64,000 nt of DNA. It comes from Amphiscolops sp. MND2022. Its lineage: Eukaryota. The DNA is taken from the NCBI GenBank assembly GCA_964187785.1, contig OZ076409.1, forward strand, positions 6,698,001 through 6,762,000, read 5' to 3'. Below the pieces are notes generated by a model. It was not told the origin of the DNA and made no database searches. It saw nothing but the letters and a program-made list of their open reading frames with translations. This document shows positions 12,766 through 53,053 of this stretch, in pieces. Position numbers and translations under genes: made by a program. Position 1 is the first letter of the stretch; each line of letters opens with the position of its first letter.

Positions 12766-12969
12766 TCTAAAAACAAAGCAAATCTATAGAAACCGACATA
12801 ACAAATGGACTAAATATAAATATCTAACAGGTGATGTTCAAATCCTTGCAATTAATTGCAATTAAAAATTGCACATCCCTGACCACCATCAAGGTCATTA
12901 TACTGCAATTGCATGCACTCATTTTCTGTTGTCGCATCAGTGTGTGCTAATTTCAGGTCTGTTGTAAAA

Positions 12970-14509
12970 ATGAAACGCAGTTCAACGGTGTCCTCATCCC
13001 GAAGAAAGAGCCGAAAGGCTCATTTTTCTGCTCCTTCACATGAGAAGTACTATCGCATGAGCAGTGCCCTGTCTAAGGAGCTGCGGAACAAATACAGCGT
13101 CAGGTACTACTATCTTCTGACATCATTTTGAATTCCATATTTACTGAAAATGTTTAATAGATTATTTCAATATTTCCTAAAATCATTATTTTCCGAAATT
13201 GTATCCTGCGTACATATAAGATTGTTCGCTGCAAAAATTATCGTTGAAAATTCTGACTGAGGAAAAAGCTGTGCAAAAGCTCTCGTCATTCTGATTTTAA
13301 AAACTCGAATTGTACAGGAGATTGAACTGTCTTCACCCCCAACTGATAGTTTCTCAAACTAAGTTGGGCTAATTGAGTTCTAGACAGTCGGTGTGAAACA
13401 TCCGCCAAAACCTGAACAGAGCTAACTGTCGCAATTTTATGAAATTGGTTTGATTTAATTTAATTTGGAAAAGCAGAAAAAAATAATTTTGATGATTTTG
13501 AGAATAAATTGAACTGTTTTTGAAGACTCTTATTCGATCATGTTTTCTATTCTAGGTCCCTCCCTATCAGAAAGGAAGATGAGGTTCTGGTTGTGAGGGG
13601 AAACCACAAGGGCCGAACTGGCAAGATCAACAACGTGTACCGACTGAAGTATTGCATCCATATTGACTCCATCAAGCGGGAGAAGACGAATGGACAACAG
13701 GTAACATTCTGTTCTCGCAAAGACTTTAGCAGTAATATTTGAAGGAACCTAATAAGGCAAATTTCTATTATGAATAGCTTGAATAATCATAGAACTTCTG
13801 AACAGTTTTTTCAACTTTTGCTCAATAATTTCGACAGATGTCATGAAATCAACTCCGTAAGTCTCTGGAAGCTACTTGTATATTTTTACTTCCATTTTTT
13901 AGGAATCTTTGAACAGACCCATTTAAAACTGCGAGTCAAAACACATAAGGTTTCAAATATAATCTTGGTGTTTTTCTGGAAATTGTGAATACCCCTTAGT
14001 GCCAAAAAATCCAACAGGGGGTCACATTAGTTTAGATTTCACTTGAAATTCTTTCATAGTGTGTCAAACTTTGGACATTAGAATTCTTCTAGTTTTGCTG
14101 GTTTTTGATATCAGGAATTTGTTGGACTCTTTCCTTTTCCTATGAAACATTCGAAAATCGTAGTCACCTTTTATGGAAAGCAGCAGACAATTTTTGAAAC
14201 ATCGAAAGATCAAAGAACTGTCCATAATCGAATCTTTCTACGCGCCACTTTTTTTCAAGGGTAATTCGGGGCAGTACCTGGAAATGATATTCTTATTCCG
14301 TGTGAATGGTTCAGTGTTTGTTTGGTTAGATCTCAAGTTGAGTCTGCAACGTTGAGTGGGTTTTTCAGGTAGCGGTGCCAATCCACCCCAGCAACGTGCA
14401 GATCATCAAACTGAAACTGGACAACTCTCGCAGGAAGATTCTGGAGCGCAAGAAGAGTGTCAAGGACGATAAGGGCAAGTACACAGCCGCCGATGCCATG
14501 GAGTCCTGA
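12970..14509 (+). CDS. RPL26: 60S ribosomal protein L26 (uL24), 139 aa, 3 coding exons
   Basis: Exons 12970-13103, 13556-13700 and 14369-14509 with GT-AG introns join in frame: [24 protein letters not shown]...[17 protein letters not shown]...[20 protein letters not shown] at 14593-14598. Confidence 0.95.
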
Positions 14510-15822
14510 TCTTGTTGGCCACTCCTGCCAGGAGACTTGTTGTTGTTCAACTTTTGATCGTTGTTTCAGAATTCATTTCGAAAACAGATGGCAATAAAAG
14601 TTGAGAGTCGTATTCTGTTTTCTTAATACTTACCTTGAGTTATCGGCAGAGTTAGCCAGACTGCTATTATGCATAGTCCAGAGATCGCTTGTGGCTCTTT
14701 GTGATGACGAGTTTCTTTTAAGCTTCTTTCTGACTGATACAGCGTGTTTAAAGCATAACTTGCTTGAATGCCGTTGAACCTTTTCAACAATGAATTCTTA
14801 AAAAAATTTCTTCTTGGCTAGACGAAACCTCGAATTCGAAGAGGAAAGTCTACTCTAGAAATTCTAGTTTTTTCACGTGTTGAAGTTGAGTTTTCCGTTT
14901 TCTCAAACTAGTTTTATTTTTGGACCTATTACATAAAGACCGGAGGCACGGAAATATTTAGCCTAGTATTCTCAGATATTTTATTTGCATATACAGTTCG
15001 AGTTTGGGAGAAAATAAATGTTCGAAATGTTTCGGTGTCAGGTAGAACAACACTTTCTGTTTCAGTCCATTTTATACCCGAAGTTGGTCATGGCAAACAA
15101 GCAATTTCGTATCAAGCACCCGAAACTTTTTTGTTGAATGGTTTCAGTTTTTGTTTTGAAAGTTTCCAATTGTTTACGTTCCAGGTTTGGCGTTTAATAT
15201 AGTTATTAGTAGTTCCAGTTTAACGCTACTATATGCTGACTACTTTGTTCATGGTAAACTCGCAGAAAGGTCCTTTCTACTGCTTTTTAATATTTTTGCC
15301 TAAGTTGAAATATCATAGAAATAGGCCATGTCTTTTTCCAGACTATTGTCCCGTTTTTATCGCCAATTCTCGTAGCAGCAACGCAGTGCCTATTTTCATA
15401 ATTCAACTTTTACCTTCCGTGCACAAAACACGTGCTAATCGAGAATTATTGACATTCACATGATTTCATTATCCATTGCCATTTTATAGTAAAAAAACAT
15501 TTCCTTTCTCTAAATAGAATGACCTTTTCGGTCGGGTTTTGGATCTGTTGTTAATTTTGACCCATTTGTTTGAATCTTTCAAATTAATATTTTGAGCCGT
15601 TCATATTTATTTTATTGGTCTGAAATGTTGATTCGCTGGTAGATTTCAATCAACAATTTGAGCCTTATTCATGTATTATCAAATTTCTCAGCTTTAAGTG
15701 TCCCGGTGGTTGATTCAATTATATCACGCGCTGTCTTGTTTTTGTATTGCCCTTTATGTTGAAATTGTTCTTCAAAAGTAATCATTGCTATATCATCTTG
15801 CTCCGTTTCAGTTGAGTTGAAA

Positions 15823-16263
15823 ATGAGTCAAAACGCTGTGCAAGTTTTCGGCCGAAAAAAGACCTCAACCGCTGTGGCACACTGCAAAGAAGGCTCTGGC
15901 ATGATCCGTGTCAATGGTCGCCCGTTGGACCTGGTCGAGCCCAGATGTCTGCAACTGAAGCTTTTGGAACCCATCCGACTTCTCTCCTCAGTCAACTTGT
16001 ACCCCAACAACCCCAAAGTCGACATCAGAGTCCGGGTCAATGGCGGAGGTCACGTGTCAAAGATCTACGCTGTCAGACAAGCTATCAGCAAGGCAATTGT
16101 CGCCTATGTCGGCAAAGTGTCGGACGAGAACCGAAAACAGCTGATCAGAAAGCAGCTGACGATGTACGACAAGACACTTCTCGTTGCCGACCCCAGAAGA
16201 AGCGAGGCCAAGAAGTTTGGAGGTCCTGGCGCCCGAGCCAGATACCAGAAGAGTTACCGATAA
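15823..16263 (+). CDS. RPS16: 40S ribosomal protein S16 (uS9), 146 aa, intronless CDS
   Basis: [17 protein letters not shown]...[14 protein letters not shown]...[26 protein letters not shown]. The ATG at 15823 follows the acceptor ending at 15811. Confidence 0.96.
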
Positions 16264-16389
16264 ATTGTTGTGTGATTCTCTGACTCTAATTCAAGTTTTC
16301 TAATCTTGTTTTCTCCCGTTGTTTGTAAAAACGTGAGATAAAGGTGGCAAGAAGGTTTTCCGAACTCCAGTCGGAAAAATTAATACTTG

Positions 16390-16731
16390 TTATTTTCCGA
16401 CCCCACATTTTACAAATGGGGGAGGAAAATCATGATCTGTGATGCGTTTTTTTCCAAATTTGGCCAAATCTCCACAATCTCCACCTTTTGATTACTTGAC
16501 TATTACTTGACTTGATGAACATAATTCAAGTCTTCTCTCTCTCAAAGTAAAAATGGGAATAATATCTAAAATTTCTGGACGGGAATAATATCTAAAGGGG
16601 ATAAGATCTAAAATCACTAAGTTTTAGATCTTATTCTTTAGATCCTATTCCCCCCTCCCAAAAAAGCTATGGCTCAGTTGGCGAAGGCGGACAGGGCGGA
16701 GAATATCCCGGTGCTTAGCGGGCGTCTTGTT
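16390..16731 (+). mobile_element. HINE/Helentron-like non-autonomous repeat, family B; inverted copy at 34733-35255
   Basis: 5' TATTTTCCG and 3' CGGAGAATA subterminal inverted repeats, a CCCG..CGGG hairpin and a CTTGTT end; two copies in the window. Confidence 0.55.
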
Positions 16732-17319
16732 GATAAAAAGAAACGTCAGCTTACGTATGTTACACGTCAGTACGTTCATTTTTTTTATGTGAAAATGAAA
16801 ATTATCTGACTCAATCTTGTTTCATCACTTTGTATTTGCCAAACGCATCCCAATAATTACGCCAATTTTGTCCGCTAAATGTAACGAGAGCAACTTTTGA
16901 CTGACAGTCAATGTAATGGATAGGATTATGTCGTCATCAATTATTTTATTGGACCAAAATTTCAGCGCAAACGATGTCGACATAATGGAATTTGAATCTT
17001 CTGTCTCATGCACCCCCCGCCGCACACAACAGTACTTTCTTCATTTCAATAAAAAGTGAAAAAATCATAAAAAGGGCAGAAAGTGAACGAGTATTGATTG
17101 GTGGAGATCTTTGACTACATACAGAGGATTGAAAGCCAAAATTTATCATATGATATTTTTACACTTGCGATAAGCAAGTGTTATGGGAAAGTGCGGGTGC
17201 TTTTTTTTCCGCGCGACAACTCTCGTTTCAGCCCGCAAGTCGCATAGTTCAGGCGTTCGTGGTCTAGTGGTAAGATGCTTGCCTTTCAACCCAGATACAA
17301 ATATTCCGAAGCGGAAGGT

Positions 17320-18781
17320 TCTAACTTTTTCGGCACTATGAGACTCTCCCTTTTTTTCGGCTTTGTGAGACTTTTTTTTTCGAAAGCTTCTTAATGTCCC
17401 CAAAGGATCCTCCCTTCAATTTTTTTGATAATTTGCAACAGAACGAATGTTAAAAAATCCCAAAGGGTCCCTTCTTTCAGATTTTTCGGCACTATGAGAC
17501 CGTTAAAAATTCTCAATTTTTGTTTTTTTTCGAAAAGTTTCCAAAGTCTCAAGGGTTCCCATTCATTTTTTTTGAAATTTTGCAACAGAATGGATGTTAA
17601 AAAATCTCAAAGCCCCCCTTCAGTTTTGGGAATTGTGAGATTTTTCAAAATGAATAATTTATGTCTGAAAATTAGGTTTTCTCCGGCCCAGCACCCTACA
17701 TCCGAGTTTTTTTCAAGACCGGTGTTTTTTCTACGCGACTTTTTTTTTTAAAAAAATGTTTTCATCGAAGCCCCTCTTTAATTTTTGCAAGAAACGAAAC
17801 GTTTTGCGAGCATAAAGGACTGCTCAAGGTTTTCGGCACTTTGCGATTTACCGGAGACCTTCATTTTAAAAATTTTTCGAAAAATGTCGAAAATTTTATT
17901 TAATTTTCTGTTTTATTTAAATGTTTTCGGTTGAGAAAGGAGGGGTTTTGCTGTTTCCAGTTGGAGAAGAATGGTTTTCGAGATCTATGCGTATCCCTTC
18001 GGGTATTTTTTGGCGCTGTAAAATTGATGAAATTTTAACAATAATTTCCTTTTACGCTTGGTTCTCCGTATGATATTGCTTATTTGGTTTTCTTCAAAAG
18101 TTCGCAACTTTCTTCGCAAGTGTTTGCGAAGCACGGCTTCGCCTCTGTGTTGAATTTCTCCAAAGGGTCTTTTTCAATTTGTTAATTTTTGCAACAATGG
18201 ATGGTAAAAAATCCCAAAGGGTGGTCACCCCTTTTACACTTTTTCGGCACAATGAGACTGTTCAAATTTTTCGTCTGATATTAGGTTTTCTTAGAATATG
18301 TGCACCAATAATTTTTTCAATAAAATCCGAATTTTGGACATTATATTCAAAGGAAATTGCGTTCGTTTCACTAAAGGGTAGGGGAGGTCACGAATATCGC
18401 GCTATATACGAACTATATTGCGTTTCACTAAGGAGGAGGCGAAAGTTCAAAAGCAAGTGCTCCCATTTGCCCCAATACGCTATAACTGAACTTTTGACGT
18501 TATATCCTTTGCATTTTAGGAAGCGGAGGGTCGAAGTTAGTGGGTTATATCCTACGTAAATTGCGTTTTACTAAGGAGAAAGCCGATGTTCGAAAAAACG
18601 CTCCAATGTGGCCGAGCACGCTATCTTCGATCTTTTGAAGCCGTTTCGGAGCACGAAAGGCAGCCTTTGGGTGTTTCCACACTTTTGTGTGTTTTTCATG
18701 AAAATGTCCTGAGCATATTTTTAAAAATTGCTCGTTTTGAGCCTGAGGTATGGCGCCGACTTTAGATTTTCCAGTCTTGTT
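17320..18781 (+). mobile_element. HINE/Helentron-like repeat, family A (long copy)
   Basis: Internal TTTTCGGCACTATGAGAC and AAAGGGTCCC modules; 3' end GGCGCCGACTT...CTTGTT. The left boundary is approximate. Confidence 0.55.
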
Positions 18782-19361
18782 AATATTGAATTTCGTTCTG
18801 AGGATTTATAAGCTTTTTATAGAAATGGTCTGAAATTTACCTAGTTGAAGATATATTACTGGACCCGAAGTGGCCAATTCCCTAGAACCTGGTTGAGACA
18901 ACTTGAACAAGATGGGAACGTCTAAAGTCGGTGCTATATCTAGGGCTCAAAAAGCTCAAAGATTTTAGGATATGCTCAGGTCGTTTTTAAATAAAAACGT
19001 CTGTTTCGAAACACCGTCAGCAAACTTTTTCTGCAAGTTTTTCTGCACTAGTAAACACTAAGCAGGCAAACGTTTTGTTGTTGAATTGTGTGGATGCGGA
19101 TTGTGTGGACAAAAACAATCCAAAAATGTTCAAATTTTACATGAAACCATCAAAATTGAAGAACTTTTGACTTTTCATGAAGCATTTTCCTCAAAATGTT
19201 CAAATATCTCCTCAAATACATGTCCCGTGATACTATTTCTTGGATCCTCAGGAAGAACCCTCATAATTTAGAGTAAAAATTGGCAAAGGCTGGCAAAAAG
19301 TTGCAGATATCGATTTTTCTTTTGTCTATGGGATATGGTCGAAGAACAAGAACATCTCTCC

Positions 19362-20196
19362 CAGGGTTGTTGTGTTTTTTAACGCATGTTTTTTAACACC
19401 TGTTTTTAACATGTTATTTAACGTTTTTAACATTGATTTTTTAACATATTTTTAACGGTGAGGCTTTGCGAGACTTTTTTCAAACATTTTTAAGGTCCCC
19501 AAAGGGTCCTCCCTTCAATTTTTTGATATTTTGCATCAGAATGCTTAAAAAATCTCAAATGACGATGTAAGAAACAGATTTGGGCAAGAAAAAGCTGCAA
19601 AATTGGCTTTTGTTCTTCACGCCTTGCGGGTTACATGACATTTCGTCCTATGCAATTTCAACCTATACACTTTCAACCGTTGACAATTTCAACCCATTGC
19701 ATTTTCAACCTTCCGCAATTTCACCTATACTAATTTTGGCTAATTACTCCCAATTTGGTTAAGTTGTTATTTCAGTACAATAGTCAGTAATAAATCAAAG
19801 AGCTTTAATTATTGGTATTTATTCATGAAGAAGCCAAAATGTATCAAAACTGGCGTAAAAATTAGCACATTTCAATTTGGAAATGTATGAAAATGAAAAC
19901 TACCTAAAATGATCACATAACTAATTATGATCCATTAGCCAAAATTAATTTAGGTCGAAATTGCGGAAGGTTGAAAATGCAACAGGTTGAAAATGTGAGC
20001 GGTTAAAATGGCAACGGTTGAAATTGCATAGGTTGAAATTGAATAGGGCGAAATGTCCTGACACCGCCTTGCGTAGTGATGTTTGATTTTATCAGCGTTG
20101 TTAACCATTTTAATTTTTAACTGTTTTTTAACGTTATTTAACGTTTTTAACACTTTTTAACGTCAAAGTTTTTAACGTGTAAAAAACACAACCCTG
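19362..20196. mobile_element. hAT-type MITE containing a nested TIR element (19629-20065)
   Basis: Termini CAGGGTTG...CAACCCTG with 8-bp TSD atctctcc. The nested GG...CC element has long TIRs and TSD gccttgcg. Confidence 0.8.
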
Positions 20197-20248
20197 ATCT
20201 CTCCTGTGAAATGAATTCGCATTTTAAATCTTTGGATCCATTTTTCAG

Positions 20249-22132
20249 ATGATTGCTGCGCGATCTGCCAACCAGGGCCTTTTGAATGGCGTGGATGACA
20301 GTGAGATTGCAGAAGGTACCCGTGGGTTTGTGCTTTCCACCACTTTTGTCCTCAAAGGATGCGAAGCCTTGCTGGCGTTCATGAAATCAGCCAAGTACCA
20401 ATCGCAGCTCCACAGATCAGGAAAACGTGATCTGTTTGCAACCAGTTCTAAACCCATCCATGTCAATTTCAATTTGTGGGTCATACCAAAACGAGCTTAT
20501 TACGGTGTGAAAATTTCAAATCTGCCTTATGACATTCATGACGGTGTTTCCAAGAGAATTTGCCTGATTGTACCCAACAGAGAGGGAAAAACGTCAGAGG
20601 AAAGCGTCCAGTTTTTCAAAACTTATGCAAGATCTTTGAATAAGATTCATGATTTTGATGTGATCACATGGAAAGATCTGCAACCTCGGCTGGTATCCTT
20701 TGAGGAAAAACGGAGCCTAGTCAAGTCGTACGATATGTTCATTGCAGATACAAGTCTCCGAGACTTCCTAATACCTAAACTCGGGAAAGTCTTCAAGCGT
20801 TGTCAGAAGTTTCCAATCAACATTGCATTGCATAGAGCGACAGAATTGAAACGAGTTCTTTCCGGAACTCACTTTTTTCTGCATAATGAGGGTAATAATT
20901 ACTCGTATCTGATTGGTCATTCCGGGATGAAACCTAAGGAGTTGAGAGACAATATAGTGGAATCTTTGAGCCAGCTGGCCAAAATTGTGCCGAACGGGTG
21001 GCGTAACATTCGCAGTGCCGGTATCACCGGGCAAGGTACTGCTTTCATTCCAATTTACGACTCTTCGCATGAAGCCCAGTTCAATACTCTCTCCCAAATA
21101 TACCAGCAAGTCATTGTCAAATCGGAACCTGTCCAAAACAATCAACCAAATCAGCCCATGGAAGTGGGAAAGAACAACGGAATTGACGATGCTTTACATT
21201 TTAAACAAGGCAAGAAATTTCTATCGACTTTCTCCAAAATCTCGGAATTGAAGGAAAAGGTTTTGAAATTGTCAGTCGCACATAAAAACAAGGCCCAAAT
21301 GGGTGTCAAAACACCAGTGAAAAGTAAATCAGCGAAAAGAGCCGGGAAGCAAAAAGAAAACATAAATAAGCACGTTGAATCTGTTGAGTCAGATTTGAAA
21401 AATCAGGCAAGCGTCGAAGAAAACCTATTACCAAAGGTTTCATCTAACGTTGAAGAAGCTCCAAGAAGCGGAACACCTGATGATAAAAGTTCCTTGGGAA
21501 ACAGTAAAAAACTGAGGAGTACCTCTGATGCAGCTATTTTGAAAACAGAGAAGAGAAAGTTGAAAAGAACCGCTGATAAACTGTCGAATGATGTCGAATT
21601 CACAGGTCGTGAAGTTCATTTACTGGCTGATTCACCTAAGAAGAAAAAGCCTAAAACCCAGGCAAGTTCTCCTCACATAACTGGATACGAAAAACATATG
21701 TTTGAAGATAAAGAAACAAGCGATAATGCTAAACCCAAAGAAAGACAAAATTTTTCTCCCAAGTTGAGCGGGTACGAAAAACATATGTTTGATGACATTG
21801 CCGAAAAGACGAAAAAGAAGAAATCAAAATCGCAATGTGAGTACAAACTCACCGGTTACGATAAGTTTAGTATGAGGGAAGACTCGCAAACAAGGAAAAA
21901 GTCTGGGAAAGTGAGAAAAAGCAGCGAATCGGCAAACACAGATGTAGACATTCCCCAGCATTTTTTCGACTCGGAAAACGAAACAGAAGTTGATGTTCCA
22001 CCGTCAGCCAAGAAGAAAAGGTCTGTTAGCAGTAGGAGCAGTGTTGCTACTAAACGCGTCCAAAGAATGTCATCCGTAGCTGAAAACACGCCTCTGAGAA
22101 GATCGAAAAGACTCCACTCTTCTAAACAATGA
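20249..22132 (+). CDS. RSL1D1: Ribosomal L1 domain-containing protein 1 (Cic1/Utp30 family), 627 aa
   Basis: L1-like domain (RICLIVP, YDMFIAD...LGKVF...KFP, IGHSGM...DNI...GWRNIRS...IPIY) followed by a long Lys-rich tail. Single ORF starting directly after a tttttcag acceptor. Confidence 0.85.
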   Translation: MIAARSANQGLLNGVDDSEIAEGTRGFVLSTTFVLKGCEALLAFMKSAKYQSQLHRSGKRDLFATSSKPIHVNFNLWVIPKRAYYGVKISNLPYDIHDGVSKRICLIVPNREGKTSEESVQFFKTYARSLNKIHDFDVITWKDLQPRLVSFEEKRSLVKSYDMFIADTSLRDFLIPKLGKVFKRCQKFPINIALHRATELKRVLSGTHFFLHNEGNNYSYLIGHSGMKPKELRDNIVESLSQLAKIVPNGWRNIRSAGITGQGTAFIPIYDSSHEAQFNTLSQIYQQVIVKSEPVQNNQPNQPMEVGKNNGIDDALHFKQGKKFLSTFSKISELKEKVLKLSVAHKNKAQMGVKTPVKSKSAKRAGKQKENINKHVESVESDLKNQASVEENLLPKVSSNVEEAPRSGTPDDKSSLGNSKKLRSTSDAAILKTEKRKLKRTADKLSNDVEFTGREVHLLADSPKKKKPKTQASSPHITGYEKHMFEDKETSDNAKPKERQNFSPKLSGYEKHMFDDIAEKTKKKKSKSQCEYKLTGYDKFSMREDSQTRKKSGKVRKSSESANTDVDIPQHFFDSENETEVDVPPSAKKKRSVSSRSSVATKRVQRMSSVAENTPLRRSKRLHSSKQ

Positions 22133-22153
22133 GTGCTCTTTCTTTGTTGAGAG

Positions 22154-37300: not shown

Positions 37301-40300
37301 TTTTCCGCCCTTCAATTTCGACGAGTTTTTTTCGACTACTTTTCCGCATACTGTACTGGCCTGAGTTAAAGGGGGCAATTTGATGAGGGGATGAAGAAAA
37401 GAAGAGTTTATCCTAAACCTAAGCAGAGGTAATTGCAAGCTGACTCCTATTCAGCAAGGGGTACCAACAAAAGCGAGAAATTTTGACCTCAGTTGTTTAT
37501 ACTTTAATCACATTTGCTCATTCTCGCACTCACTTGGGGTTTTTTTATATCAATCGTGCCACGGTTTTTGATAACCACCCCCCCATACGCACCAAACCCC
37601 TCACAAAAAATGATGCTTATTTTTGGTGGGGCTTGTGTTTTCCTTACAGACGAACTTTATGTGTGAAAATGCAAAATAAGTCATACAGTAGAAGCGCCCT
37701 TATAAAGGACCTGCTTTGGACCTAAAATGTGTCCGTTATAAAAACAATCCGTTGTAAAAACTTCCGTTCAATGGAATTCCAGGGATAATTGTACAAAATA
37801 GTCCGTTAGGAAACGTTTTATAGAAAATATACAGTATGCAGATTCAGCATAAATGGAAGTTGTTCAGTTGAAAATGTCATTTTTTTCAACTGTTTTCTTG
37901 AGCGTCGTATGTGAGTCATAACTGTATTACCAGGTTTCACTTTTCACGGAAATATTGTCCTCATTTGCCGTGACATCATGTTGAGATCCGTTATATAAAC
38001 ACATTTCGTATTTGGGAGATGAAATTTTTGTCCGTTATAAACACAATTGCGTTGTATAAGCGTTCGTCATATAGCTAAATAAAATCATGTAATGAATATT
38101 GTTCCAGCCAAGACTTTTTACATTTGTCCGTTACAAACCGAATTCCGTGATATAGCCATCCGTTATAAACGCATTCTTCTGTAGCAAAGATGTTGTGTGT
38201 AATCTTTCTAACAGATTTTTTTTTAACAATAACCGATTGAAAATTTTTAAAACCGAATCTGTTAAACCAATTTTCGCCATGAATCTGAATTTAACCAATT
38301 TTTGAACAAGTTTTTGTGGCGCATTAGGGAATACTTTTGTGACCATTTCCTAAAAGTTTTTGAAAACACAATAGGATGAATGGTTGGGAGTTCAGAAAAG
38401 GTGCGGAAACTAGGCATGACAGCCTAGACTTACTTGAGCTCCTAAACCATTTCTGAATTTTGTGTTTGGGACTTTAGTTTTGAACAGAGAAATGACAAAA
38501 TTTTCATTTTCAAATTTTAAAAAAATGGGTTTTTTAAAACCGAATCTGTTTAACATATTGTTTAATGGTTAAAAATGTTTAACAAGCCATTTTTTAAACC
38601 AATTTGTGAAACCAATGGTTAAACAAAAGGTTCAAATGTACATCACTGTACTGTATGTGGTATGACAATGTTTGAAGTTGCATGTGATTTCGTTTCAGAG
38701 GCCGGAGGTTTTTTGGCATGCTCACCCAGACGTTGCATTCGTTCCAAGAGAAGGAGAATGAGAAGAAGGTTATCTATCATCATCATCGATATTGTACTCC
38801 TGTTCATCTATGAAAGATAAGATTCTAGGGTTCACAAGATTTTGTTAGGATTTCTCAAATTCGAAATGGCCCCAAGTGGCTTATAGTTTGACTACATGTA
38901 TTATATCTTTCGGAAGTTCCCGAAAAATCACATTCGAATGTCAAAGTGAATTTTCCAGATATCATCTTTCACACGGGATATTCTGATGTGAAAAAGATGA
39001 AAAGTGCCGAACAAATTGAATAGTCATTCTCTAGACCATACACAAGTGTAAAGAAGTATGTGAGAAACAGTGTTTTTTTAAAAAAAAATGGTTCTATGTT
39101 TTTTCTTGTTTTGTTCATGAATAACCAAACCACTTTAAGAACCTTGACTATGGCACTAGTTGTTTTCCTTACACGGCTAATGACAGAAACTATTGTTGAA
39201 CAACATTTCTCACATGGTTCGTTGGTGTGTTCAGCCGGCGTTGGAGAAGCGACTGGAGGTAGAGAAGAAAGTGGAGGCGGCGGAGAGGCAGGAGAAGGCG
39301 GAGGCGGCCGTGGAGAGACGGGAGCTGTTCAAGGAGCGCATGCTCAGGGAAGAGGAGATTGCGCAGTTGAACGCAAAGATGGACCGTGCCCAAATGGTAA
39401 GAAACAATCACACCAGCCAGTATAAAATAACCCACTTTAGGTTGGCATCCGTTGGGTAAGGGCCCCTTCTCAAAATGCGACAATTGGTCTCTTCTGTGAA
39501 GAATGATTCTGTGAAGTCTTCTAGATCAAACCAAATCTTTTAAGTTTGTGGGCATCTAATATTGTGGGCAAGTTTTTAGGAGGCGGAAAAAATTTCGATT
39601 ACTTATGCTCTCGTACCTTTTTTTACCCCCGACCTTTCAATGAAAATTCCGAAATTTCTCAAACTGTCCATACACAGTCATTGTACACCCAAAGGTGCCT
39701 CTGCATGCGCAATGGCATCAAATCGTATAACCGGGATCTGCTAAGTCCAAAAATGACTCAAAAACGGACGTTTTTGGACTTTTTTCGATTTCTCAAAAAC
39801 TGTCCATACGATTCGAACAATTTTTTTAACAATCATACATCATAATCATATCAGAGTCCTATGTCTGCAATGACATCTGAATTGTGTGACTGGCATCTGA
39901 AAAACATAGCCAAGTTTAGTCCAAAATGACCAATTGACAATAAAGTAGATAATTTGTTTTTCAATATTTATTCCGTTTCCGGTCATGCAACACTGGCTGG
40001 TTCTTCTAATTCTTGAATTTTGCTTAAAGATTCAAGAGGCAGTAGTAGTAGTATACGACAAGGACCTAAAAGCCGGTCTCTATTTGAGTTCGGAAACCTA
40101 TTTACCGTGACGTAATTGTATAATGACGTAATGGTGGTTTTGTTTCTTTCAGCTGGAAGACTGGGAGTGTGCGATGCAGAAAACGAAAGGCAACATTCTC
40201 ACCAACTCCAGACCCCCTATCTTCTACAGACCCAACATGTTCAACAGCCGTCTCACTGAACTCCAGAAACGCACGGAGAAGTATATAGACAGTGAGCACT

Positions 40301-43300
40301 TCGATTTGACTATTTCTCCAGTAGTGCTTTCTTCAAATGCACGAAAAACTGACAATTCTCATTCATCAAACGTCGCCAGGCTGTAGTAAACCAATGGTTC
40401 AAATCAGGAAACGTAATTAACGGCATGTGCCGTCGTGCCGTGAAATGCCGTTTCAGCCAATCTCGTGCCGTTTTCACTAGTTTAATATTTCTGAGAAATG
40501 TGTCAATATCATACACGTAAAATTTAACGCCCTCTATCGTGACGTTTTGGAACTATCTTTCTGAGAAATGTGTCTATCATACACGTAAAATCGCTGTATG
40601 TTGTGTCTTTTACTACATCTTTTACTATCGTACTGACTGGTTGTCAATTATTTATTTACTTCAGACATTATGCGGGCGGCTATTCACAAGTCCGAAAATA
40701 AATTTGGGTTGCAAAAGTCCGAAAATAAATTTGGGTTGCACAAGTCCGAAAATGAATTTGGGTTGCACAAGTCCGAAAAACTTTCTTGCGGATTTTTTTT
40801 CAAAAAGTTAGCATGAAAATATTAAATTAATATTAATTAATAAACAAATGAGTTAATAACACAAATGAGCAATTGTTTCCGATATGCTTCTAGATCCATT
40901 CCGAGGGCCAAAGAAGTTTTTAGTTCCTGAATTTGTTCATTTCGAACACGGTATTTTCTTTTTTGAATCGGAGGAGATCGGCGTTTTTCAGTGCGTTTTC
41001 GGTAATTTTCTGTTGCTGCTTCAGAAATTTTTTTGCCAGCCATAAATTAGGAGATGATCTGTTAGTGCGCCTATTACCGGTCAGGAATGTTCAAAAACTT
41101 CTCGAAAAATTGCGAAAAAATTTCGAAAAATTTTAAAGAATTATTCAAAACTTTTTTCTGAACATCCCTGTTCCAAGTACTATTCCAGGCTTCACAGCCA
41201 TTTGTCCTCAAAATGGGCTCTCTGTCCAGCACATTCCACATTGATATTTCAAAAGTTGAAATCAAAGTTCGGTGGAAATATTTTAGAAAATCGGCAATTT
41301 TCGGAAATTGTTGCACCAGAAAAACTGTTTGTTGGTCCGAAAGTAATTTCATAATGCATGGCAGGACTTCATTTTCAGGTACAAAAGCCAAAGCCATGAA
41401 TTTGCGGAAAAAAGACTTCACCATTGAATTTTTTCGGTACTCTTTAACCTTAACGAGCTGTTGAACTTTTCGATGAATACTTTTCGTGAAATGAAAGTAG
41501 CAACCATTGTGTGTCGATTCTGGAAAATCCGTTTCAATGGCGCTGATGATTGCCCGTTCGAAATCTGTAACAATTAGTTTTTTTCCATTTGGATGCCGAG
41601 AGTTTCCATTTTTTTTCGAATAATTTCAAACATTTTCCGATAAATGAACGTTGTTTTTGAGCTCAGAAGTGCAAAAACGAGAAGGTGTTTCTGGCTTTGT
41701 AAATATTGGCCAAACAGTACATATAACTGCTCACAAGGGGGAGGGCAACACTTGAAAGTTCCATCACTCAACATGATTGGACTTTTTGCAAGAATTTTCA
41801 AACTTTTTTCAGTTGCGAAAATTACTATACCATTTTTTCTGTCGTTTTTGATGAGGAAAGGCTTGCCCTCGAAAGTTTTGGCCCATTTGCCTTTAATATT
41901 TGTACAAAATGTCAAAGGACACGCGGGTAATTTTTTTGCTCGATGTCGTTGCATTGTCGATTTTACAGATTTGTAAACTGGTACCGAGCTTCTTTCGTTT
42001 CGGGTTTTGGTCAAGACCTTATCGTAAACATTTTTCAAAACTTGGGTTGGATCTTTGTCTATTTTCTTCTTCAATTTTTGTCGAAATTCTATTTCGCTTT
42101 GTTTTCTTCATTTCCGTAATGATTGTGAGAACCGGGATGTTTAAGAACATTTTTCAAATGGGGATCAATTGTCATTGTGACCCCACCTTTAGCGGAACAT
42201 CGTAAATAAATTGTTGTCGGAGTTTTTCTATTGATTTGATAACAATATTGATTGAATACGATAATTTTATCGCGCCCTGTTTCGAAAATAATAATTTTAT
42301 TTTGATTATTCATTATTGGAAAGGTAATTTGATTCGTTTTCCGTATTGAAATGAGTGCGAATAGCAGCCGTTAATGTAATTATATAATACGTGTGGTAAA
42401 ATTTGAACAAAATTGAGATTTTACTAGGGAAACTGAAGAAACTATTTCATCTTTGAACGGACTTCGTTCCGGTCCACCCCGGTCCGTCGGCCAATCAAAT
42501 TGCAGAGCGTCATACAGTGCTAAGTAAGTCTTATTGGACCAGAAAATTTAATTTTATTCTTTCGGACCTGTGACCCGACACCATTATGCGTCCTGTACCA
42601 TTGACATCACTCAAAATCGCAGTGAAAGAGCACCAATGTTTCCAAGTTTTGAAAGCTCACATTGACAAATTAGAAGTTTTTTGCAATGTTTGTTCCCGTT
42701 CAATTAACATGTCAAAATCCAACCATGTCCCCAACCATCTTGAGAGCAGTTTGCATCAGAAAAACGTCGGAAAAAGAAGCAAGCCATACTGGTTCCAGTA
42801 CTGAACAGAACTGAAGACAGTTTTTTGCTCGACTTTACACAACAATGGAACATTTGAGTTTTTTGATAACTTATATAAAGAATAGCCAATCCCAGAACTA
42901 TTGTGCTCCGAATGCGTCAAACGATATTCAGGAAATTGAAGAGAAATTAATTGATTTGAAGGAAACCCAAAATACGTTTGGCGCAATTTCTCTGCAGAAA
43001 TTTCAAACGGTTCTTCAAAAAACAAAGGCTTATTGAAAGTGATAAAAATTACAAAAGGCCAAGAAATCACAGCCTTCTGAAATTGACATTTTCACTTTTG
43101 CACCTGTAACTTCTGTTGAATTGGAAAGATTTTTCTCGGGGTTGAAATCTTTCATCGAAGACCGGCCAAATATGCTGGAAGAAACTGCAAAAAAAATGAT
43201 GTTTATCAAGTTTAATGCTGTTTTGTAAACGATCTAATTGAAATTTCAGTCGATAATCTTGATTTTTTTTCGTGCCGTTTTTGGCTGTTACGTGCCGTAA

Positions 43301-45795
43301 ACGGCGCCGTTTCGGCAAGTTTGGTGCCGAAAATCACGTTTCCTGGTTCAAACATTCAAAAAATGATTCAAGTAGCTTGAAAATCCGTTTTGAACAATGT
43401 ATTGACCCCTTAAAGCGCGAGCGCTTATTTGAGCCCAGCGACGGGGTTTCCCAGAAATAAGCGGCATTAGCGAAAAGCGAAATAAGCGCAAGTAAGTTTC
43501 GTAAGCGATCAATACACTGATTTTGAAGAGAAACTGCTGTTATAGCTTTATTTCATTTTAAATCTGGAAGTTGCTGTTGCGTCCTTTTCTTAGCCCAACT
43601 GTTTTCGAATACTTTTTAACCCAATGTCAACGTGATTCTATTTTCTAGGTTTAATATTCGAGCGAGAAGAAGAAATGAAGCAGGAATTGCATATTCTTCC
43701 TTCCGAGGAGAATTTGGCTGCTGGCGAAGACGAAGAAGGAGTAGCGAAAAGAAACAAAGTATCTAACGTAGGTGGCGAGCGGCGTTTAGGTGCTAACTTA
43801 GCAGGTAAGATAACTAACGGCGGTGGGCTAGAGGCCAAATCAGCTGCCTCTAGCCTTGGGAAGCCTGAGAAAGGTGGTGTTGTTTCCAGTGAGAAACATG
43901 CACTCGTTTCTGGCGGAAACATTTGCAACGGAGGAGACCCCAATGAAGCCCCAAAGTCATTGGCGGAAGAACTCGGAGCACCGAGTGAGGACATTGAGAA
44001 TTTGTTGGTAGAGCAGCCGTCCACTGAACTGCCCAAAAAGGAATCGGTTACTACCAGTGTGGCTTCTGCCATTATCATCCACACTGATAGCTCCTGTAAG
44101 AACCAGGCAGAAGCCGAGAACCTCAAAGAATCGCCTTCAGGGTCCAAAAGCGACAAGTATTCCCCCAGCAAGAAGCAAAGAAACTACAGACAGAGAAGCA
44201 AATCTACCTCTGAAAGCAGAAGAAAGCGCAAAGAGGCGAGTCCTGTCAGAAAAACGAGCAAACCTGATTCTAAAAAGAGTACAGCCGATAAGAAAGAGAG
44301 TCATCGTCGAAGGTCTGAAAGAAGCTCCTCGAGAAACAAGGCCGTCAAAACTTCTGATGCTTCTGAAAACTCAAAAAGAAAAACAGATAACGCAAAGGAG
44401 AAAGACAAGGTTGTGAAGCGAAATAGGTCTGTTGAAAGAGGACAAACTGAAAAAACAGACCGATCGAAAGAGAGAAAACAGAAGACTACTGTGGCTGCGA
44501 GAAAACAACGCAGCAAATATTCCAGTTCCGGAAGCAGTAGTTCTGGGTCAAGTCCTGACGAGCCACGGAAAAAAGCATCTCGTCCAGTCAATCAAAAGCA
44601 GGACAAGCTTCCAACCAGTGGTGACACCAAAGGTACTGTCGCGCCAAGAGACAGCACTGAGTCGAAGAAAGATGGAAAAGACGCTGATTCATTGAAACTG
44701 AAAAACTATAACACTACTTTTGCATCCGAGTTGAAGAAAATGAAACAGCTAACGGAGAAAGACCCGGCAGCTGTTTCTGAGACTAGTAGAACTGATGCTT
44801 CTGAAACTATTCCAAAATTGGACAAGACAGTTATCTCCAATGAAGCTGCGAAAGAAATTCCGCTCCCGGAATCTGAGAGACCTGAAAATAGCCAAGATTT
44901 GGAATCCAAACCAAATACAACTCCGAAACCTCAAACCCCTCAATCTGAAACGGTGAAGCCCAAAATAGACACTGCTCCTGTTCCTGAGTATCCGACCCAT
45001 TCTCCTCTGAAAACTCCAGCCTTGTATAAAAATGTCAACCCGTCATTGCTGCCTGTTGATCATGAAAACTTGACCTTCAAGATAACCTCAGCATTCCAAG
45101 CAGCCCCAACACCTCCAAACTTGCCCCCTGTCTATAACACCCTCAACAATGTCGCTCCAGTGTCTGTGACAGAAAACACTGACAAATCAGCCCATGGTAC
45201 CACGAAAAGCGCCACTGAAACTGCTCCTAAACCGGCGGAAACTATTATTGATTTGACTACCGATGCAAATACTCTTAACTCCTCAAGCACGTCCGAGAAA
45301 AAACCAAGCGCACCTTCACATCCTGTAAGTACTAGCGCTGCCAAAGACCAACAACTTTCTGCCGCAGTTGCCGCGGCGAACAATTCTGGAGCCGTAGCGG
45401 TGAAAAAACGAAGATCGGTAAGTAGTTCTTCGAGTTCAAGCAGCGACAGTGACAAAAGTTCGCCGGGCCGACATAGCCGAGGAGACAAGCGCAAACGTCG
45501 GTCTTCTCCGACCCAGAGGCGTCATGCCAGAAGGGCTTCCAGTCGGAAACGAAGGCGGAGTCACAGCAGACGAAGACGCCGTGGTGGATCCTCGCCCAGA
45601 AAAGGTGCATCTACTTCCCGGCACCATAGACGAAGACCCAGTAGGGAACGGAGACGAAAAGGTGGAAGTCGCAAAAGAAGGAGAAGTCCTTCCGCAGACA
45701 GAGAAAGGAGACGCCGAAAATCCCCCTCTTCATCTAGTTCCGAGTCTTCTTCGAGCGGGGCTAGTGGGAACTCAAGCGATGAGTCATCCAAGTAG
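25319..45795 (+). CDS. PNN: Pinin (SDK/memA domain, RS-rich C-terminus), ~970 aa, 9 coding exons
   Basis: Exons 25319-25425, 27080-27145, 29196-29246, 36063-36156, 36845-36921, 38699-38768, 39235-39396, 40153-40291 and 43649-45795 are all GT-AG and phase-consistent (2913 nt). Motifs: RLQNARDNLDVLDKNLKRISG; KQRGRRFFGMLTQTLHSF; KRLEVEKKVE..ERRELFKER; ILTNSRPPIFYRP. The small exons 2-4 are less certain. Confidence 0.88.
27235..27764. mobile_element. piggyBac-type MITE
   Basis: TTAA|CCCTAATCAACCCAGCGG ... CGCCGGGGTCAATTAGGG|TTAA. Confidence 0.8.
27843..27917. repeat. 75-nt near-perfect inverted repeat (32-bp arms)
   Basis: ctgttagagttgctcgcatgtaaatatcagta ... tactgatatttacatgctagcaactctaacag, with one mismatch. 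Confidence 0.85.
28896..29079. mobile_element. pogo/Tigger-type MITE
   Basis: TA|CAGTCAAACTCGGATAAAAGAAAC ... GTTTCTTTTATCCGAGTTCGACTG|TA. Confidence 0.85.
30214..30987 (-). mobile_element. HINE-like repeat, family A
   Basis: Begins AACAAGCCGGGAACGGCCCAAGTCAGCACC and ends AAAGTGCCGACTAAA. Confidence 0.6.
31949..32570. mobile_element. MULE/foldback-type MITE
   Basis: Inverted arrays of CAGATTTCGTCCCA / TGGGACGAAATCTG; 9-bp TSD atagaaatt. Confidence 0.85.
33532..34448 (-). mobile_element. Two head-to-tail HINE-like family A copies
   Basis: AACAAGACGGGAACGTCT(A/C)AAGTCGGCG occurs at 33532 and 33963, with a single AAAGCGCCGACTAAAAA end at 34448. Confidence 0.7.
35321..36016 (+). mobile_element. 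HINE-like repeat, family A (full-length example)
   Basis: TTTTTTAGTCGGCGCT ... GGCGCCGACTTGGGCCGGTCCCGGCTTGTT. Confidence 0.7.
36201..36797. mobile_element. MULE-like MITE with a pogo-type MITE (36206-36379) inserted in its TIR
   Basis: 9-bp TSD atccaatct; same family as 19629-20065. The nested element reads TA|CACTCAACTCCG...CGGAGTTGAGTG|TA. Confidence 0.8.
37686..38181. mobile_element. pogo/Tc1-type MITE
   Basis: TA|CAGTAGAAGCG ... CGCATTCTTCTG|TA with repeated CCGTTATA motifs. Confidence 0.65.
40405..43345 (+). mobile_element. Internally deleted hAT (CGGBP-like) transposon in Pinin intron 8
   Basis: TIR CAGGAAACGT/ACGTTTCCTG with TSD gttcaaat/gttcaaac. N-terminal zinc finger CNVC...H.ES..H (42586-42804) and C-terminal FAPVTSVELERFFS (~43082-43228). 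Confidence 0.8.
40675..42581 (-). mobile_element. MULE (Mutator-like) transposon with decayed FLYWCH plus MULE transposase
   Basis: 9-bp TSD cattatgcg; termini CACAAGTCCGAAA / TTTCGGACCTGTG. ORFs carry IYLRC..HNH, SDGTFKCCP..QLY, FALLSSKT..Y and RTNGCEAWN. Confidence 0.88.
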
Positions 45796-46780
45796 GGGTG
45801 ATCTGTTTCGCTGCCGAGACCGCCTCTCGGAGACGCTGAGATAGCCTTTTTGCGTTTCACTACTATCCTTAGAATACATCAAATATGAAGAATGTCGCAG
45901 TACCCAGCCCCGAAACGTATAGGCTAGAATAAGTAACCTAAGTTCATGGATGAAAAGCAGAATAGAAAAATGTTTATATTATAAGTTACCATCGAAGTGA
46001 TTGTAGGTTTTTGCAGGTTTGCAGAAGAATTGAAGAAGCGACTGCTGAAGTTTTGTTGATATTTTGCACAAACTCAAGACACTTGAATTTTTCTCCAATC
46101 CTGATATTTTTGTTTATAATATACTTGTATCCGAGCTGTGATGTGATCACTTTGACAAATTCTTTCGTTTTCCGCTAAACTAGATCTTTCAGTTTCAATT
46201 TTCCTAAAATCTCACTTCACCATCTGAAAAAGTTGCTCCAATACAAATCAAATCCGAGAAAAATGTCGAAAGCAAGATAGATTTTCTACTCCAGATGAAA
46301 GATATGCTTTTACAGCCGAATCAAAATTAGGATCAAAGCAACTTATGGGGCTCGAGAATTTCTTCACTGGGATTTGTATTGAAATTTTTCAGATTTTTTC
46401 CTTCATTCTTGAATGATGTTAGAAACTGTTTTATTGCTTATTTGTCATTTTCCAATTTACTTTTCACTCGATTCCTGTTTTCTAAAATTTCTAACATCTC
46501 CACAATTTGCAAGTCACTAGATTTGGATAGTACACATGGTTATTGCGCATACTAATCTTTCAAAGACCAGTTTTTTCTGCCAATCGGTTGCTACTGTTGA
46601 ATTTTTCTTTGTAAGCTGGAACATGAATAATTCGCTAAACGGTACTTTTTTGTTCAGCTTGAGTTGAGAAAAACTTGTCGAATATTCAATCATACTCAAA
46701 AATAGCGGGCGGGCCTCGTTTTTTTTGGGGAACTTTATAGCACCTTCGCATAATTTTCTGAAGTTGATTTTTTAATATAC

Positions 46781-47219
46781 TTTTAGCAGGCGCTTCACAA
46801 ATTGAAACGCGACTATAATAGTGACTTTTTTCAATCCACGCGAACTGACCAAAGTTCTACAAAATTTTAAGGGGCCAAATTGTACCATTTGGCCCAGGGA
46901 ACTGAACTATAAAAGTTGTCGCTTTTTTCAGCGTAACATACAATACCCGGCGAGACTAAAGGCCCCCTTTCGATTTTTTTTGGCACTGTGACTTTTTTTT
47001 GAAAATTTTTAAATTTTTCCAAAGGGCCCCCTTATTTTTGATGTTTTGCCAACAGAATGGATGTTGAAAATAGCCAAGACGTCTCCCCTTTTAGCGCGCC
47101 AGTTCGGTCGCTCTTTGGGTTTTTCGGGTACTATGGAAAAGAATACTTAACGCTTTGAAGTCCTTTTGCTATCTTTGAACCTTAGATATGGCGCCGATTT
47201 ATGCCGTTCCCGGCTTGTT
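46781..47219 (+). mobile_element. HINE-like repeat, family A
   Basis: TTTTAGCAGGCGCT ... GGCGCCGATTTATGCCGTTCCCGGCTTGTT. Confidence 0.65.
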
Positions 47220-47619
47220 TCTATTGTATATCAGTAGTGCGGTGTTAAAACTCATTGTCAAAACTATTGACGTATAAAAAGATATTGCTAGTGGGCGAGG
47301 TATATAGAGAACCTGTTTCTACTGACTGACAAGGCATCGTGGCAGAGTGGTTAGGTGGCTCGATTTCCATTCCTGAGTTTGAATCCGGGACTTCGCAATT
47401 ATTTTTGTAAGGTTATTATACCCCCATACTTCTGATAGTATAACACTGCACTAATTATATCGCATTCAATGCCCTGATTCATTTACCAATCGAACTTGCT
47501 CGAAAACGTGCGTGTATTTCCTTGAATTCTAGTATTCCCCGGAAATGTTACTCTTATCTTTCGTGCTCATGTTAGTTCATTTCATCATTTTTTGCCTGGT
47601 TTTTCAGATAATTTTTGCT

Positions 47620-49281
47620 ATGCCTTCCTTCGATCCTCTGGGGTTAGCCTATGGGCTTTTAGTCAGTGGGGGCGGCATATACGGGTATGCTAGAAGCGGC
47701 AGTGTGCCCTCTATAGTAGCTGGCGTTAGCTTCGGACTACTGGCAATCGCTGGATCAATGCAATTAGCCCATGACCCCAAAAATATCTGGATCCTCTTAG
47801 CTTCCAGGGATGAGTCTTCCAAATCATTTTTGAGAAATTGAAAAAATGTATATAGAATAACGTTTTTTATTAGTTCAATCGTGACTTTTTTTTGTGTTTT
47901 TGATATTTCTGCCTTAGCAGTTAATAGTTTTTCAGGACCTTTTTATCGACCCACTTTGTTAGCCAATTTTGATTGGCTACTCCAAGTCTTGAGCTAGTTT
48001 ATTTTATTCTCGTAGCTGCGAGGTAACGTTTTATTGACATGAGAAGCGAACGAGTGTTAATTATTCGTACGCCAACTGCTTCGCCTGCATTCAAATACGG
48101 ATGCGAAACATCTTACGAATGCGAACTTAGCAGTTGTATTTTCTTTAATCCGAGAAAAATTAAAGGCGTTGTAAACTGTTCCAATGATTAATTGTGCGCC
48201 ATCTGATGAATTAACTTACAGTTGAATCCGCCTAATTTGTATCGCTAAAGACCGAAAATAGTACGGACAATGAGAAATAGAATTCACCGGATGATATTAC
48301 TTTGGCCGTCCCGAAATGGGGTTCTCAGATGCATACGAATTAAACGAAAATATGAATTATCCGAATACGAAGTTGACTGTATCAATAATTATCATGATTA
48401 GGGGAGTGTATAGTTACTTGAAACATTGTATGATTTTGATACTGAACTTCGAAGGTTATCGAATCATCTGGGCGTATTCCAATTACCGAACATTGGCAAA
48501 CCTTGCTACAGGGTCCATGAAACACTGGGTTCCTGAACGCCTCAACCAGCGTTTGGAGTGGACAATCCTATCTGTTACATTATTTAACAGTTCAAAGTTG
48601 CTCATTTAATCTTATGGCGGAGAAAAATTGGGTTGAAATATGGGCGTTTCTATAATTTTAACTTGTTCCAGGCGTGAATTTTTGCTATTTTGGACAATAT
48701 CAAAAAATTAGGATCGTTTTTGCTGAAAGTGTCAAATCAGATTTCACAATCCTCTAAGTATTCATAACCATTTTTAGTCGGCGCTTTCATAAGATAAAAG
48801 AGCCCGACTATTACAGTCACTCGTTTTTTCTTTTTTTAAAGACAGACTCGAAGCGACGAACGTTAACGTTTTGTCAGTTTGTTCAACTAAAGGAAACTAA
48901 ACGAATACCCGGGAAACGCATCTAAGTTATTCCAAAGGGTCCACCTTTCGATTTTTTACGGCACTGTGCGACTTTTTCTCGAATTTTTTTGTCTCCAAAG
49001 GGTCCCATTCGATTTTATTTGAGCCTTAGATATAGCGCTGACTTGGCTTGAGACGTTCCCGTCTTGTTAGTTCTCTCATTAGTGGAATGTTTTTGTCGTG
49101 GATTGCTGTATATGGTGGATAGACTGACTCATCCCTGTATTAATTTTGTTGCAGTGGAACTCTGTCGGTGCTGATGGGTGCCAGATACTACCACACTGGC
49201 AAGTTCATGCCAGCCGGAGTGGTGGCCACAGCCAGCATCGCCATGTCTCTCAAACTGCTCGCCTCCTATTACCTGAGATAG
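47620..49281 (+). CDS. TMEM14: Transmembrane protein 14 (TMEM14C-like), ~104 aa, 2 coding exons
   Basis: Exon 1 (47620-47807) reads DPLGLAYGLLVSGGGIYGYARSGSVPSIVAG...DPKNIWILLAS. Exon 2 (49155-49281) reads GTLSVLMGARYYHTGKFMPAGVV. The donor position is inferred from homology and is non-canonical. Confidence 0.88.
48219..48379. mobile_element. pogo-type MITE in the TMEM14 intron
   Basis: TA|CAGTTGAATCCG ... CGAAGTTGACTG|TA, with degenerate TIRs. Confidence 0.6.
48771..49068 (+). mobile_element. HINE-like repeat, family A (short copy) in the TMEM14 intron
   Basis: TTTTTAGTCGGCGCT ... AGCGCTGACTTGG..GAGACGTTCCCGTCTTGTT. Confidence 0.65.
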
Positions 49282-53020: not shown

Positions 53021-53053
53021 GTAAAGAGTTTTGACATTTGAACGGCTATACTT

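Follow-up and report, generated by a model that had tools for sequence, protein, structure and literature searches.

The window analysed here, 64,000 nucleotides (nt) of Amphiscolops sp. MND2022 DNA (C1:6698001-6762000 of a 1.07-Gb assembly), carries five housekeeping genes, RPL26, RPS16, RSL1D1, pinin (PNN) and a TMEM14 family gene, each of which opens directly or a few nt behind a TTTCAG splice acceptor. The same genome holds a tandem array of spliced leader (SL) RNA genes and many dispersed DNA copies of leader-capped RNAs, and it places an acceptor just before the start codon at unlinked genes as well. The reading we consider probable is that the five acceptors take a 31-nt SL in trans and that the genes are separate, same-strand transcription units. 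We infer both parts of it, leader use at these junctions and separate promoters, from the genomic features described below.

Acceptors at the start codons

Inspection of the window sequence places five + strand TTTCAG motifs with their ends at 12956, 15811, 20248, 25308 and 47607, and the corresponding ATGs at 12970, 15823, 20249, 25319 and 47621. The gaps are 13 nt for RPL26, 11 nt for RPS16, 0 nt for RSL1D1, 10 nt for pinin and 12 nt for TMEM14, all as given in a preliminary description of this DNA. The gene identities proposed there are confirmed by Pfam domains, namely Ribosomal_L26 (in RPL26 exon 1), Ribosomal_S9/S16, Ribosomal_L1, Pinin_SDK_memA and Tmemb_14. The genes and their acceptors are as follows; the RPL26 exon borders were placed from reading frames and GT/AG, and the internal borders of pinin are approximate, from conservation with a second copy on chromosome C5.

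12951..12956, + strand: TTTCAG acceptor of RPL26, 13 nt before the ATG at 12970
12970..14509, + strand: RPL26 coding region, three exons (12970-13103, 13556-13700, 14369-14509), 139 residues, AATAAA at 14593
15806..15811, + strand: TTTCAG acceptor of RPS16, 11 nt before the ATG
15823..16263, + strand: RPS16, intronless 146-residue open reading frame (ORF) with stop, sole copy found in the genome
20243..20248, + strand: TTTCAG acceptor of RSL1D1, abutting the ATG directly
20249..22132, + strand: RSL1D1 (Ribosomal_L1 domain), intronless 627-residue ORF with stop, sole locus found in the genome
25303..25308, + strand: TTTCAG acceptor of pinin, 10 nt before the ATG; acceptor and 10-nt 5' untranslated region (UTR) the same in the C5 copy
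25319..45795, + strand: pinin gene, ~20.5 kb, exon 1 at 25319-25426, arginine/serine (RS)-rich last exon at ~43650-45795
41077..42370, - strand: MULE-type transposase remnant (Pfam) inside a pinin intron
47602..47607, + strand: TTTCAG acceptor of TMEM14, 12 nt before the ATG
47621..49281, + strand: TMEM14 family gene, first coding exon from 47621, last coding exon at about 49144-49281

All five genes lie on the + strand, and the earlier statement that no host gene opposes them holds for Pfam matches between 12.9 and 49.3 kb. The minus-strand matches in this interval (MULE transposase at 41077-41625, sub-threshold FLYWCH and YHR052C-B at 42092-42370 and a spurious Cas9 bridge-helix at 28093-28341) all fall within the pinin span, and none is a host gene.

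The motifs could in principle be chance occurrences without a role in splicing; TTTCAG is a short word, and nothing beyond this speaks for such an explanation. The window contains 54 copies on its + strand, and a TTTCAG ends 0-13 nt upstream of 21 of the 929 + strand ATGs (2.3%). Finding one at five of five named start codons is far beyond chance against this background, and the motif also stands before the ATG at seven of seven genes elsewhere. The pinin acceptor is, moreover, conserved in the C5 copy while its flanks have diverged. We give the chance explanation a negligible probability: all five motifs are true 3' splice sites.

Housekeeping genes outside the window, picked without regard to their 5' ends, were examined in the same manner. 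A TTTCAG lies 0-26 nt before the ATG in all seven that could be assessed, at 0 nt in a DHX8-like gene, 2 and 26 nt in RPL15, 6 nt in an NSA2-like gene, 12 nt in RPS6 and 21 and 24 nt in RPS8; one further RPS8 copy (L059) was left out, its locus ending at the ATG. We take the NSA2-like protein to start at MPQNE, from its conserved N-terminus. The DHX8-like gene, which is intronless and stands beside the C5 pinin copy, reads TTTTCAG/ATG (slashes mark splice junctions here and below). The pattern is thus present in 12 of 12 genes, and since the seven unlinked genes share it, the acceptor geometry is a property of the genome and not special to the five-gene cluster.

Some features of these housekeeping genes were observed in passing. 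An intronless structure or a very long first exon is common among them (RPS16, RSL1D1, RPS6, RPS8 and the DHX8-like gene), each directly behind an acceptor. RPL15 pieces lie in tandem ~3.6 kb apart at C12:44336151-44341223 (L053-L055), where two matches contain an in-frame TGA, and RPS8 occupies at least three loci (two on C5, one on C1).

Spliced leader RNA genes and leader-capped DNA copies

For the acoel Symsagittifera roscoffensis, the available portion of the genome paper describes a spliced leader and counts 10,433 genes (30.2%) as trans-spliced (PMC9911081; bioRxiv 10.1101/2022.08.27.505549). The published 32-nt leader string has 2378 matches with at most 3 mismatches in the present genome, whereas a reversed-pattern control has 0; the 100 places listed for it are all exact. 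Its 20-nt 3' core has 1962 exact matches, with 0 for the control, and 89 of the 100 core matches listed fall in one tandem array on the window's own chromosome (C1, 16.23-16.41 Mb), at a distance of ~9.5 Mb. The array (C1:16229106-16413187 and beyond; loci L022-L040) is mostly spaced at 904 bp, some units being longer.

Each of the 19 array loci fetched contains a 31-nt leader ending in AATAG and followed by a GT donor, GTAAGT in 18 and GTAACT in L022. In 18 of them a leader-pairing stretch or stem-loop, a GC-rich hairpin and an Sm-like AATTTTTGA or AATTTTCGA follow; the exception, L029, is interrupted after the donor. A few units carry a 1-mismatch leader (starting GCCTACTTG). A 111-nt SL RNA unit folds with a free energy of -27.9 kcal/mol (z -3.3), and 0 of 200 shuffled sequences fold as well. 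The preliminary description had proposed a genome search for an SL RNA with leader, GT donor and Sm site, and this array is its outcome. The genomic leader equals the first 31 nt of the published string. Because the array leader is 31 nt long and is then followed by the GT donor, the 32nd published base, an A, lies outside the SL RNA gene; acceptor exons most often begin with A, as at 7 of the 12 acceptors examined.

The window itself contains no leader copy and hence offers no leader exon for use in cis. The fetched loci yielded a single leader family, its variants differing by 1 mismatch, and no SL2-like class, although no systematic search for other leaders was made. The nematode SL1 family RF00198, searched against the organism's own genome, had no match among the 50 scored of 369,169 first-look candidates, and neither Rfam at gathering thresholds nor a tRNA scan returned anything for the window.

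Dispersed leader copies differ from the array units in what follows the leader. In none of the 18 fetched does GT come next; ORFs follow directly, and the distance from the leader to the first usable ATG ranges from a few to some tens of nt (8-12 nt in L013, L014, L020 and L021, longer in L003 and L012). The dispersed copies appear to be DNA copies of leader-capped RNAs. Pfam identifies an endonuclease (Exo_endo_phos) in four elements, twice together with a PHD finger, and a PHD finger only in a fifth; in several copies the PHD finger occupies the first ORF and Exo_endo_phos the second. No Pfam family was found in 11 of the 18 dispersed-copy ORFs scanned. The endonuclease and PHD-finger ORFs make these elements similar to long interspersed nuclear elements (LINEs). 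Slamovits and Keeling reportedly described, in 2008, relict leader sequences that dinoflagellates acquired from retroposed SL-bearing mRNAs. The likeness is that retroposed sequences, LINEs among them, begin with a DNA copy of the leader, whereas the elements here are LINE-like animal elements.

One family of dispersed copies exists in two forms. In the first (L003, L004) the leader is joined directly as leader/ATTAACTG, at the position that reads TTTTCAG/ATTAACTG; in the second (L011, L016) the leader stands upstream of that TTTTCAG site, as leader/CTGCGG followed by TCTTTTCAG ATTAACTG. The first form is the expected product of leader addition at the TTTTCAG acceptor, a DNA fossil and direct genomic evidence for this acceptor type. 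Leader-capped LINE copies are in this sense a cheap, RNA-free record of acceptors used by the leader, and together with the SL RNA array they are the more informative by-products of the analysis.

Further observations concern the dispersed copies as a class. Hundreds to thousands of leader copies lack a donor and appear retroposed (L003, L004, L007-L009, L011-L016 and L018-L021 among them), and several read leader, TTTCAG and, further on, ATG. Another family (L002, which equals L017, L005 and L006) has the leader followed by a near-complement of its own 3' half, giving a hairpin (GTGATAAACTTAT and, further on, ATAAGTTTATCAC GTGTTTTT). The ORF that follows starts MV(Y/H)VIGASSL, and no Pfam family matches it convincingly. 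These loci are neither normal SL RNA genes nor obvious LINEs.

Cis- and trans-splicing at the five junctions

If the five acceptors are used in trans, the outron, or 5' part, of each pre-mRNA would be lost and a capped leader gained from the SL RNA, for which the tandem array on the same chromosome would be the source. The resulting 5' UTRs would be 31-44 nt long. The five genes would be separate units that face the same direction by chance, on a small island of genes with transposon-rich DNA on one side and a satellite on the other. Caenorhabditis elegans offers a familiar parallel in its SL1 genes with outrons, where a UUUCAG-type acceptor without a paired donor stands a few nt before the AUG and most trans-spliced genes lie outside operons. 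The acceptor just before the AUG is alike; the SL2-like class is missing among the loci fetched here. Since the genome uses an SL and 12 of 12 genes share the geometry, leader trans-splicing at most of the five sites is likely.

Ordinary cis-splicing would instead make the acceptors the ends of 5'-UTR introns, each preceded by a short non-coding first exon with its own promoter. Introns of this kind are found in many ribosomal protein genes where the animal lacks a spliced leader. Donors with at least 7 of 9 consensus positions do lie 63-791 nt upstream of RPL26, RSL1D1 and TMEM14 (two each). TTTCAG is also the commonest internal acceptor, accounting for about half of the ~9 assigned to RPL26 and pinin from inferred borders, the others being TTCTAG, TTGCAG, TTTTAG and TGACAG. 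These donors are, however, at or below background (6 in 5.8 kb versus 1.45 per kb), and none of that quality occurs within 1.16 kb upstream of RPS16 or pinin. Without leader splicing we would not expect 12 of 12 genes to have a 5'-UTR intron ending 0-26 nt before the ATG, and the presence of the SL RNA array and leader-capped retrocopies in this genome further argues against an explanation that does without them. Cis-splicing as the general explanation seems to us quite improbable.

The pinin gene permits a comparison between copies. Its Pinin_SDK_memA exons lie at 39184-39456 and 40132-40383 (Pfam), conserved internal blocks are found near 27032-27164, 36055-36171, 36833-36924, 38664-38771, 39177-39403 and 40094-40301, and an unannotated frame of 719 residues (43636-45792) makes up the RS-rich last exon. 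A second, more compact copy occupies C5:66404000-66453999 (L046-L050), with exons 91-97% identical; the last exon plus downstream sequence is ~80% identical, and the last exon is split by an in-frame stop into frames of 569 and 154 residues. This copy follows the intronless DHX8-like gene and a TMEM9 exon on the same strand, and its neighbours differ from those in the window. Its exon 1 is 97% identical to that of the window and was considered as a possible retrocopy; this was rejected, as the duplication is at the DNA level and takes in the acceptor and the start of the intron.

The C5 copy keeps TGTTTTCAG/ATATGAAATAATG exactly, while upstream and intron sequence have diverged. The comparison shows constraint on the acceptor and 10-nt 5' UTR, which suits cis- and trans-splicing equally. 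No conserved upstream block was found within ~1 kb of the window acceptor or ~1.4 kb of the C5 acceptor, a result that counts against a conserved cis first exon. In both copies the 10-nt 5' UTR contains an identical mini upstream ORF, ATG AAA TAA (within 25309-25321 in the window), and the stop of this ORF shares bases with the main start codon (TAATG).

Copies that might preserve a leader junction were also sought by genome search. Processed copies of RPS16, RPL26 exon 1 and TMEM14 exon 1 were not found, each search returning its own locus only, and a search with RefSeq S. roscoffensis RSL1D1 for a retrocopy returned the window locus only. The reading frames of RPL26 and pinin are open through the leader. 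A longer RPL26 with a leader-encoded N-terminal extension was looked for by comparing window positions 12955-13101 with the protein collection; none of the 98 matches came from the source organism, and the best, at 77-78% identity, belong to other organisms.

Several points weigh against the reading of leader trans-splicing at separate genes. From DNA alone, trans- and cis-splicing at the five junctions are not directly distinguishable, and the candidate cis donors upstream of RPL26 (CAG/GTGATG at -126 and AAG/GTCATT at -63) are plausible, those upstream of RSL1D1 and TMEM14 weaker. The published 30.2% is a share of all genes, so not every such acceptor need be trans-spliced (PMC9911081, available portion). 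The published S. roscoffensis statistics may also describe a relative and not this genome, because the RefSeq S. roscoffensis RSL1D1 matches the sole locus here at only 41% identity. With regard to separate units, the five genes and the next recognisable gene, a LIM exon 26 kb downstream, lie on one strand, neither AATAAA nor ATTAAA occurs between pinin and TMEM14, and no promoters were identified.

In a protein search with the window RSL1D1, the best named relative is an S. roscoffensis protein at 36% identity, and closer relatives stand at 60% and 51%. The ESM Atlas places RSL1D1 in Ribosomal_L1 clusters only, with Arthropoda as the commonest taxon, which is misleading as a taxonomic hint. 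As for S. roscoffensis as a known system, the likenesses are the 31-nt leader match, multiple SL RNA genes, a ~1.1 Gb genome and a high transposon load; the differences are the RSL1D1 divergence and that the available portion of the paper lists no operons (PMC9911081). The trans-splicing suggested in the preliminary description therefore stands for the organism, through the SL RNA array, the leader-capped copies and the general geometry; for the five junctions themselves it is read from sequence and remains probable in the sense given above.

Spacers and the question of an operon

A different view of the cluster is that some or all of the five genes share one promoter, the transcript being resolved by SL trans-splicing and the spacers having been enlarged by transposons. 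The preliminary description had put forward such an operon as a possibility and had called much of the intergenic DNA derived from transposable elements. The spacers, measured from stop codon to next acceptor, are listed below. Repeat shares are lower bounds, with the best 40 candidates scored for spacers 2-4; the search of spacer 1 covered 1212 nt, with 19 of 19 candidates scored.

14510..15811, + strand: spacer 1 (RPL26-RPS16), 1302 nt, nearly unique, only ~100 nt (15284-15396) repeat-like
16264..20248, + strand: spacer 2 (RPS16-RSL1D1), 3985 nt, repeats at least 2981 nt (16374-16738, 17151-18160, 18161-18801, 18898-19021, 19362-20202)
22133..25308, + strand: spacer 3 (RSL1D1-pinin), 3176 nt, repeats at least 1268 nt (23079-23852 with terminal inverted repeats; 24216-24709)
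45796..47607, + strand: spacer 4 (pinin-TMEM14), 1812 nt, repeats at least 470 nt (46764-47233), no AATAAA or ATTAAA

Inspection of these spacers reveals that the transposon origin applies to spacer 2, which is mostly repeats, and in part to spacers 3 and 4, but not to spacer 1, nearly all of which is unique. Spacer 1 is not transposon-inflated, and it leaves room for an RPS16 promoter. The repeat at 19362-20202 in spacer 2 is a young 840-bp element that contains inverted segments; it shares 93-98% identity with copies on other chromosomes and ends 46 nt before the RSL1D1 acceptor. Conservation with the C5 pinin copy extends over the first 734 nt of spacer 4, a possible 3' UTR.

That repeats inflate operon spacers has been proposed before, for Macrostomum lignano; in the available portion of that paper, an adjusted distance of at most 1 kb was used and the mode is ~100 bp (PMC8629364). 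By this 1-kb rule spacer 1 is too long, with ~1.1 kb of unique sequence, and the upper bounds left in spacers 2-4 after removal of detected repeats are ~1.0, 1.9 and 1.3 kb. That system resembles the present one in that ~30% of genes are trans-spliced with conserved genes enriched, inflated spacers were proposed and same-strand neighbours were counted; it differs in phylum and in its unrelated leader, and its ~100-bp mode of adjusted spacers contrasts with the ~1.1 kb unique spacer 1 here (PMC8629364, available portion).

The case for shared transcription draws on several of these features. All five genes are co-oriented with no host gene opposite between them, and the DHX8-like, TMEM9 and pinin trio is also co-oriented at C5. 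Spacer 2 consists of repeats for at least 75%, leaving at most ~1.0 kb; spacer 4 lacks a canonical poly(A) hexamer and has ~0.6 kb left after the 734-nt possible 3' UTR and the 470-nt repeat. Repeat-adjusted spacers below 1 kb, furthermore, define operons in M. lignano, as given in the part of the paper available (PMC8629364).

Against this, spacer 1 retains ~1.1-1.2 kb of unique sequence, above that 1-kb threshold and far from the ~100-bp mode, and five genes would share a strand by chance in 1 of 16 cases. Nematode operons have ~100-nt spacers and a dedicated SL2, whereas the leader variants among the loci fetched here differ by a single mismatch. Acceptor geometry is equally present at unlinked genes, and at C5, next to different genes, the diverged pinin copy has its acceptor and 5' UTR unchanged. 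Ribosomal protein genes would, in our estimation, also need very different outputs from those of pinin and TMEM14. No paper linking acoels or Symsagittifera with operons was found in a literature search.

With spacers of 1.3-4.0 kb, the first of them unique, a geometry shared with unlinked genes and a C5 pinin acceptor that stands behind other neighbours, the earlier operon proposal is not borne out. Shared transcription of some or all of the genes is unlikely as an account of the cluster, and a single five-gene polycistron is highly unlikely. That any two adjacent genes here are transcribed together and then separated by leader splicing seems to us doubtful; the pairs for which it would be most plausible are pinin-TMEM14, with no canonical hexamer in the spacer, and RPS16-RSL1D1, with its repeat-rich spacer. 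Separate, leader-receiving genes therefore remain the reading we prefer.

Clustering of genes on one strand is hinted at by the five genes plus the LIM exon on the + strand and by the trio on C5, a sample too small to test. The 40 kb of flank contain that one further host exon (LIM, + strand) plus transposons, too few genes for orientation statistics. The longest k-mers present in three or more of the 700-nt regions upstream of the five genes are a few AT-rich 9-mers; none of 10 nt or more is. The observed/expected CpG ratio is ~1 throughout, which leaves no CpG islands to count and is uninformative.

The remainder of the window is repetitive. Its first 12.5 kb (positions 1-12.5 kb) contain retroelements identified by Pfam: a gypsy-type pol remnant on the - strand at 6178-8236 (reverse transcriptase, RNase H, integrase zinc finger) precedes a Penelope-like element on the + strand at 9267-12509, which has a reverse transcriptase and a weak, sub-threshold GIY-YIG match and ends ~450 nt upstream of the RPL26 acceptor. 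Downstream of the genes, a 4257-bp direct duplication with internal 84-, 48- and 29-bp minisatellites spans 50403-57673, and a 337-bp satellite of at least 17 units runs from 58231 to 64000 and off the window end.

Housekeeping genes that start right behind an acceptor are a routine consequence of a published trait, the use of an SL by an acoel-type genome. For annotation, this means that the 5' ends here would be trans-splice sites, and that promoters may sit far upstream in repeat-rich outrons. If an adjacent pair did prove to be co-transcribed, it would be the first operon-like unit described in Xenacoelomorpha and would indicate that polycistrons tolerate kilobase transposon insertions between cistrons. 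Transcription through the spacers would, in turn, be relevant to the frequency with which operons evolve in lineages that already have leader splicing.

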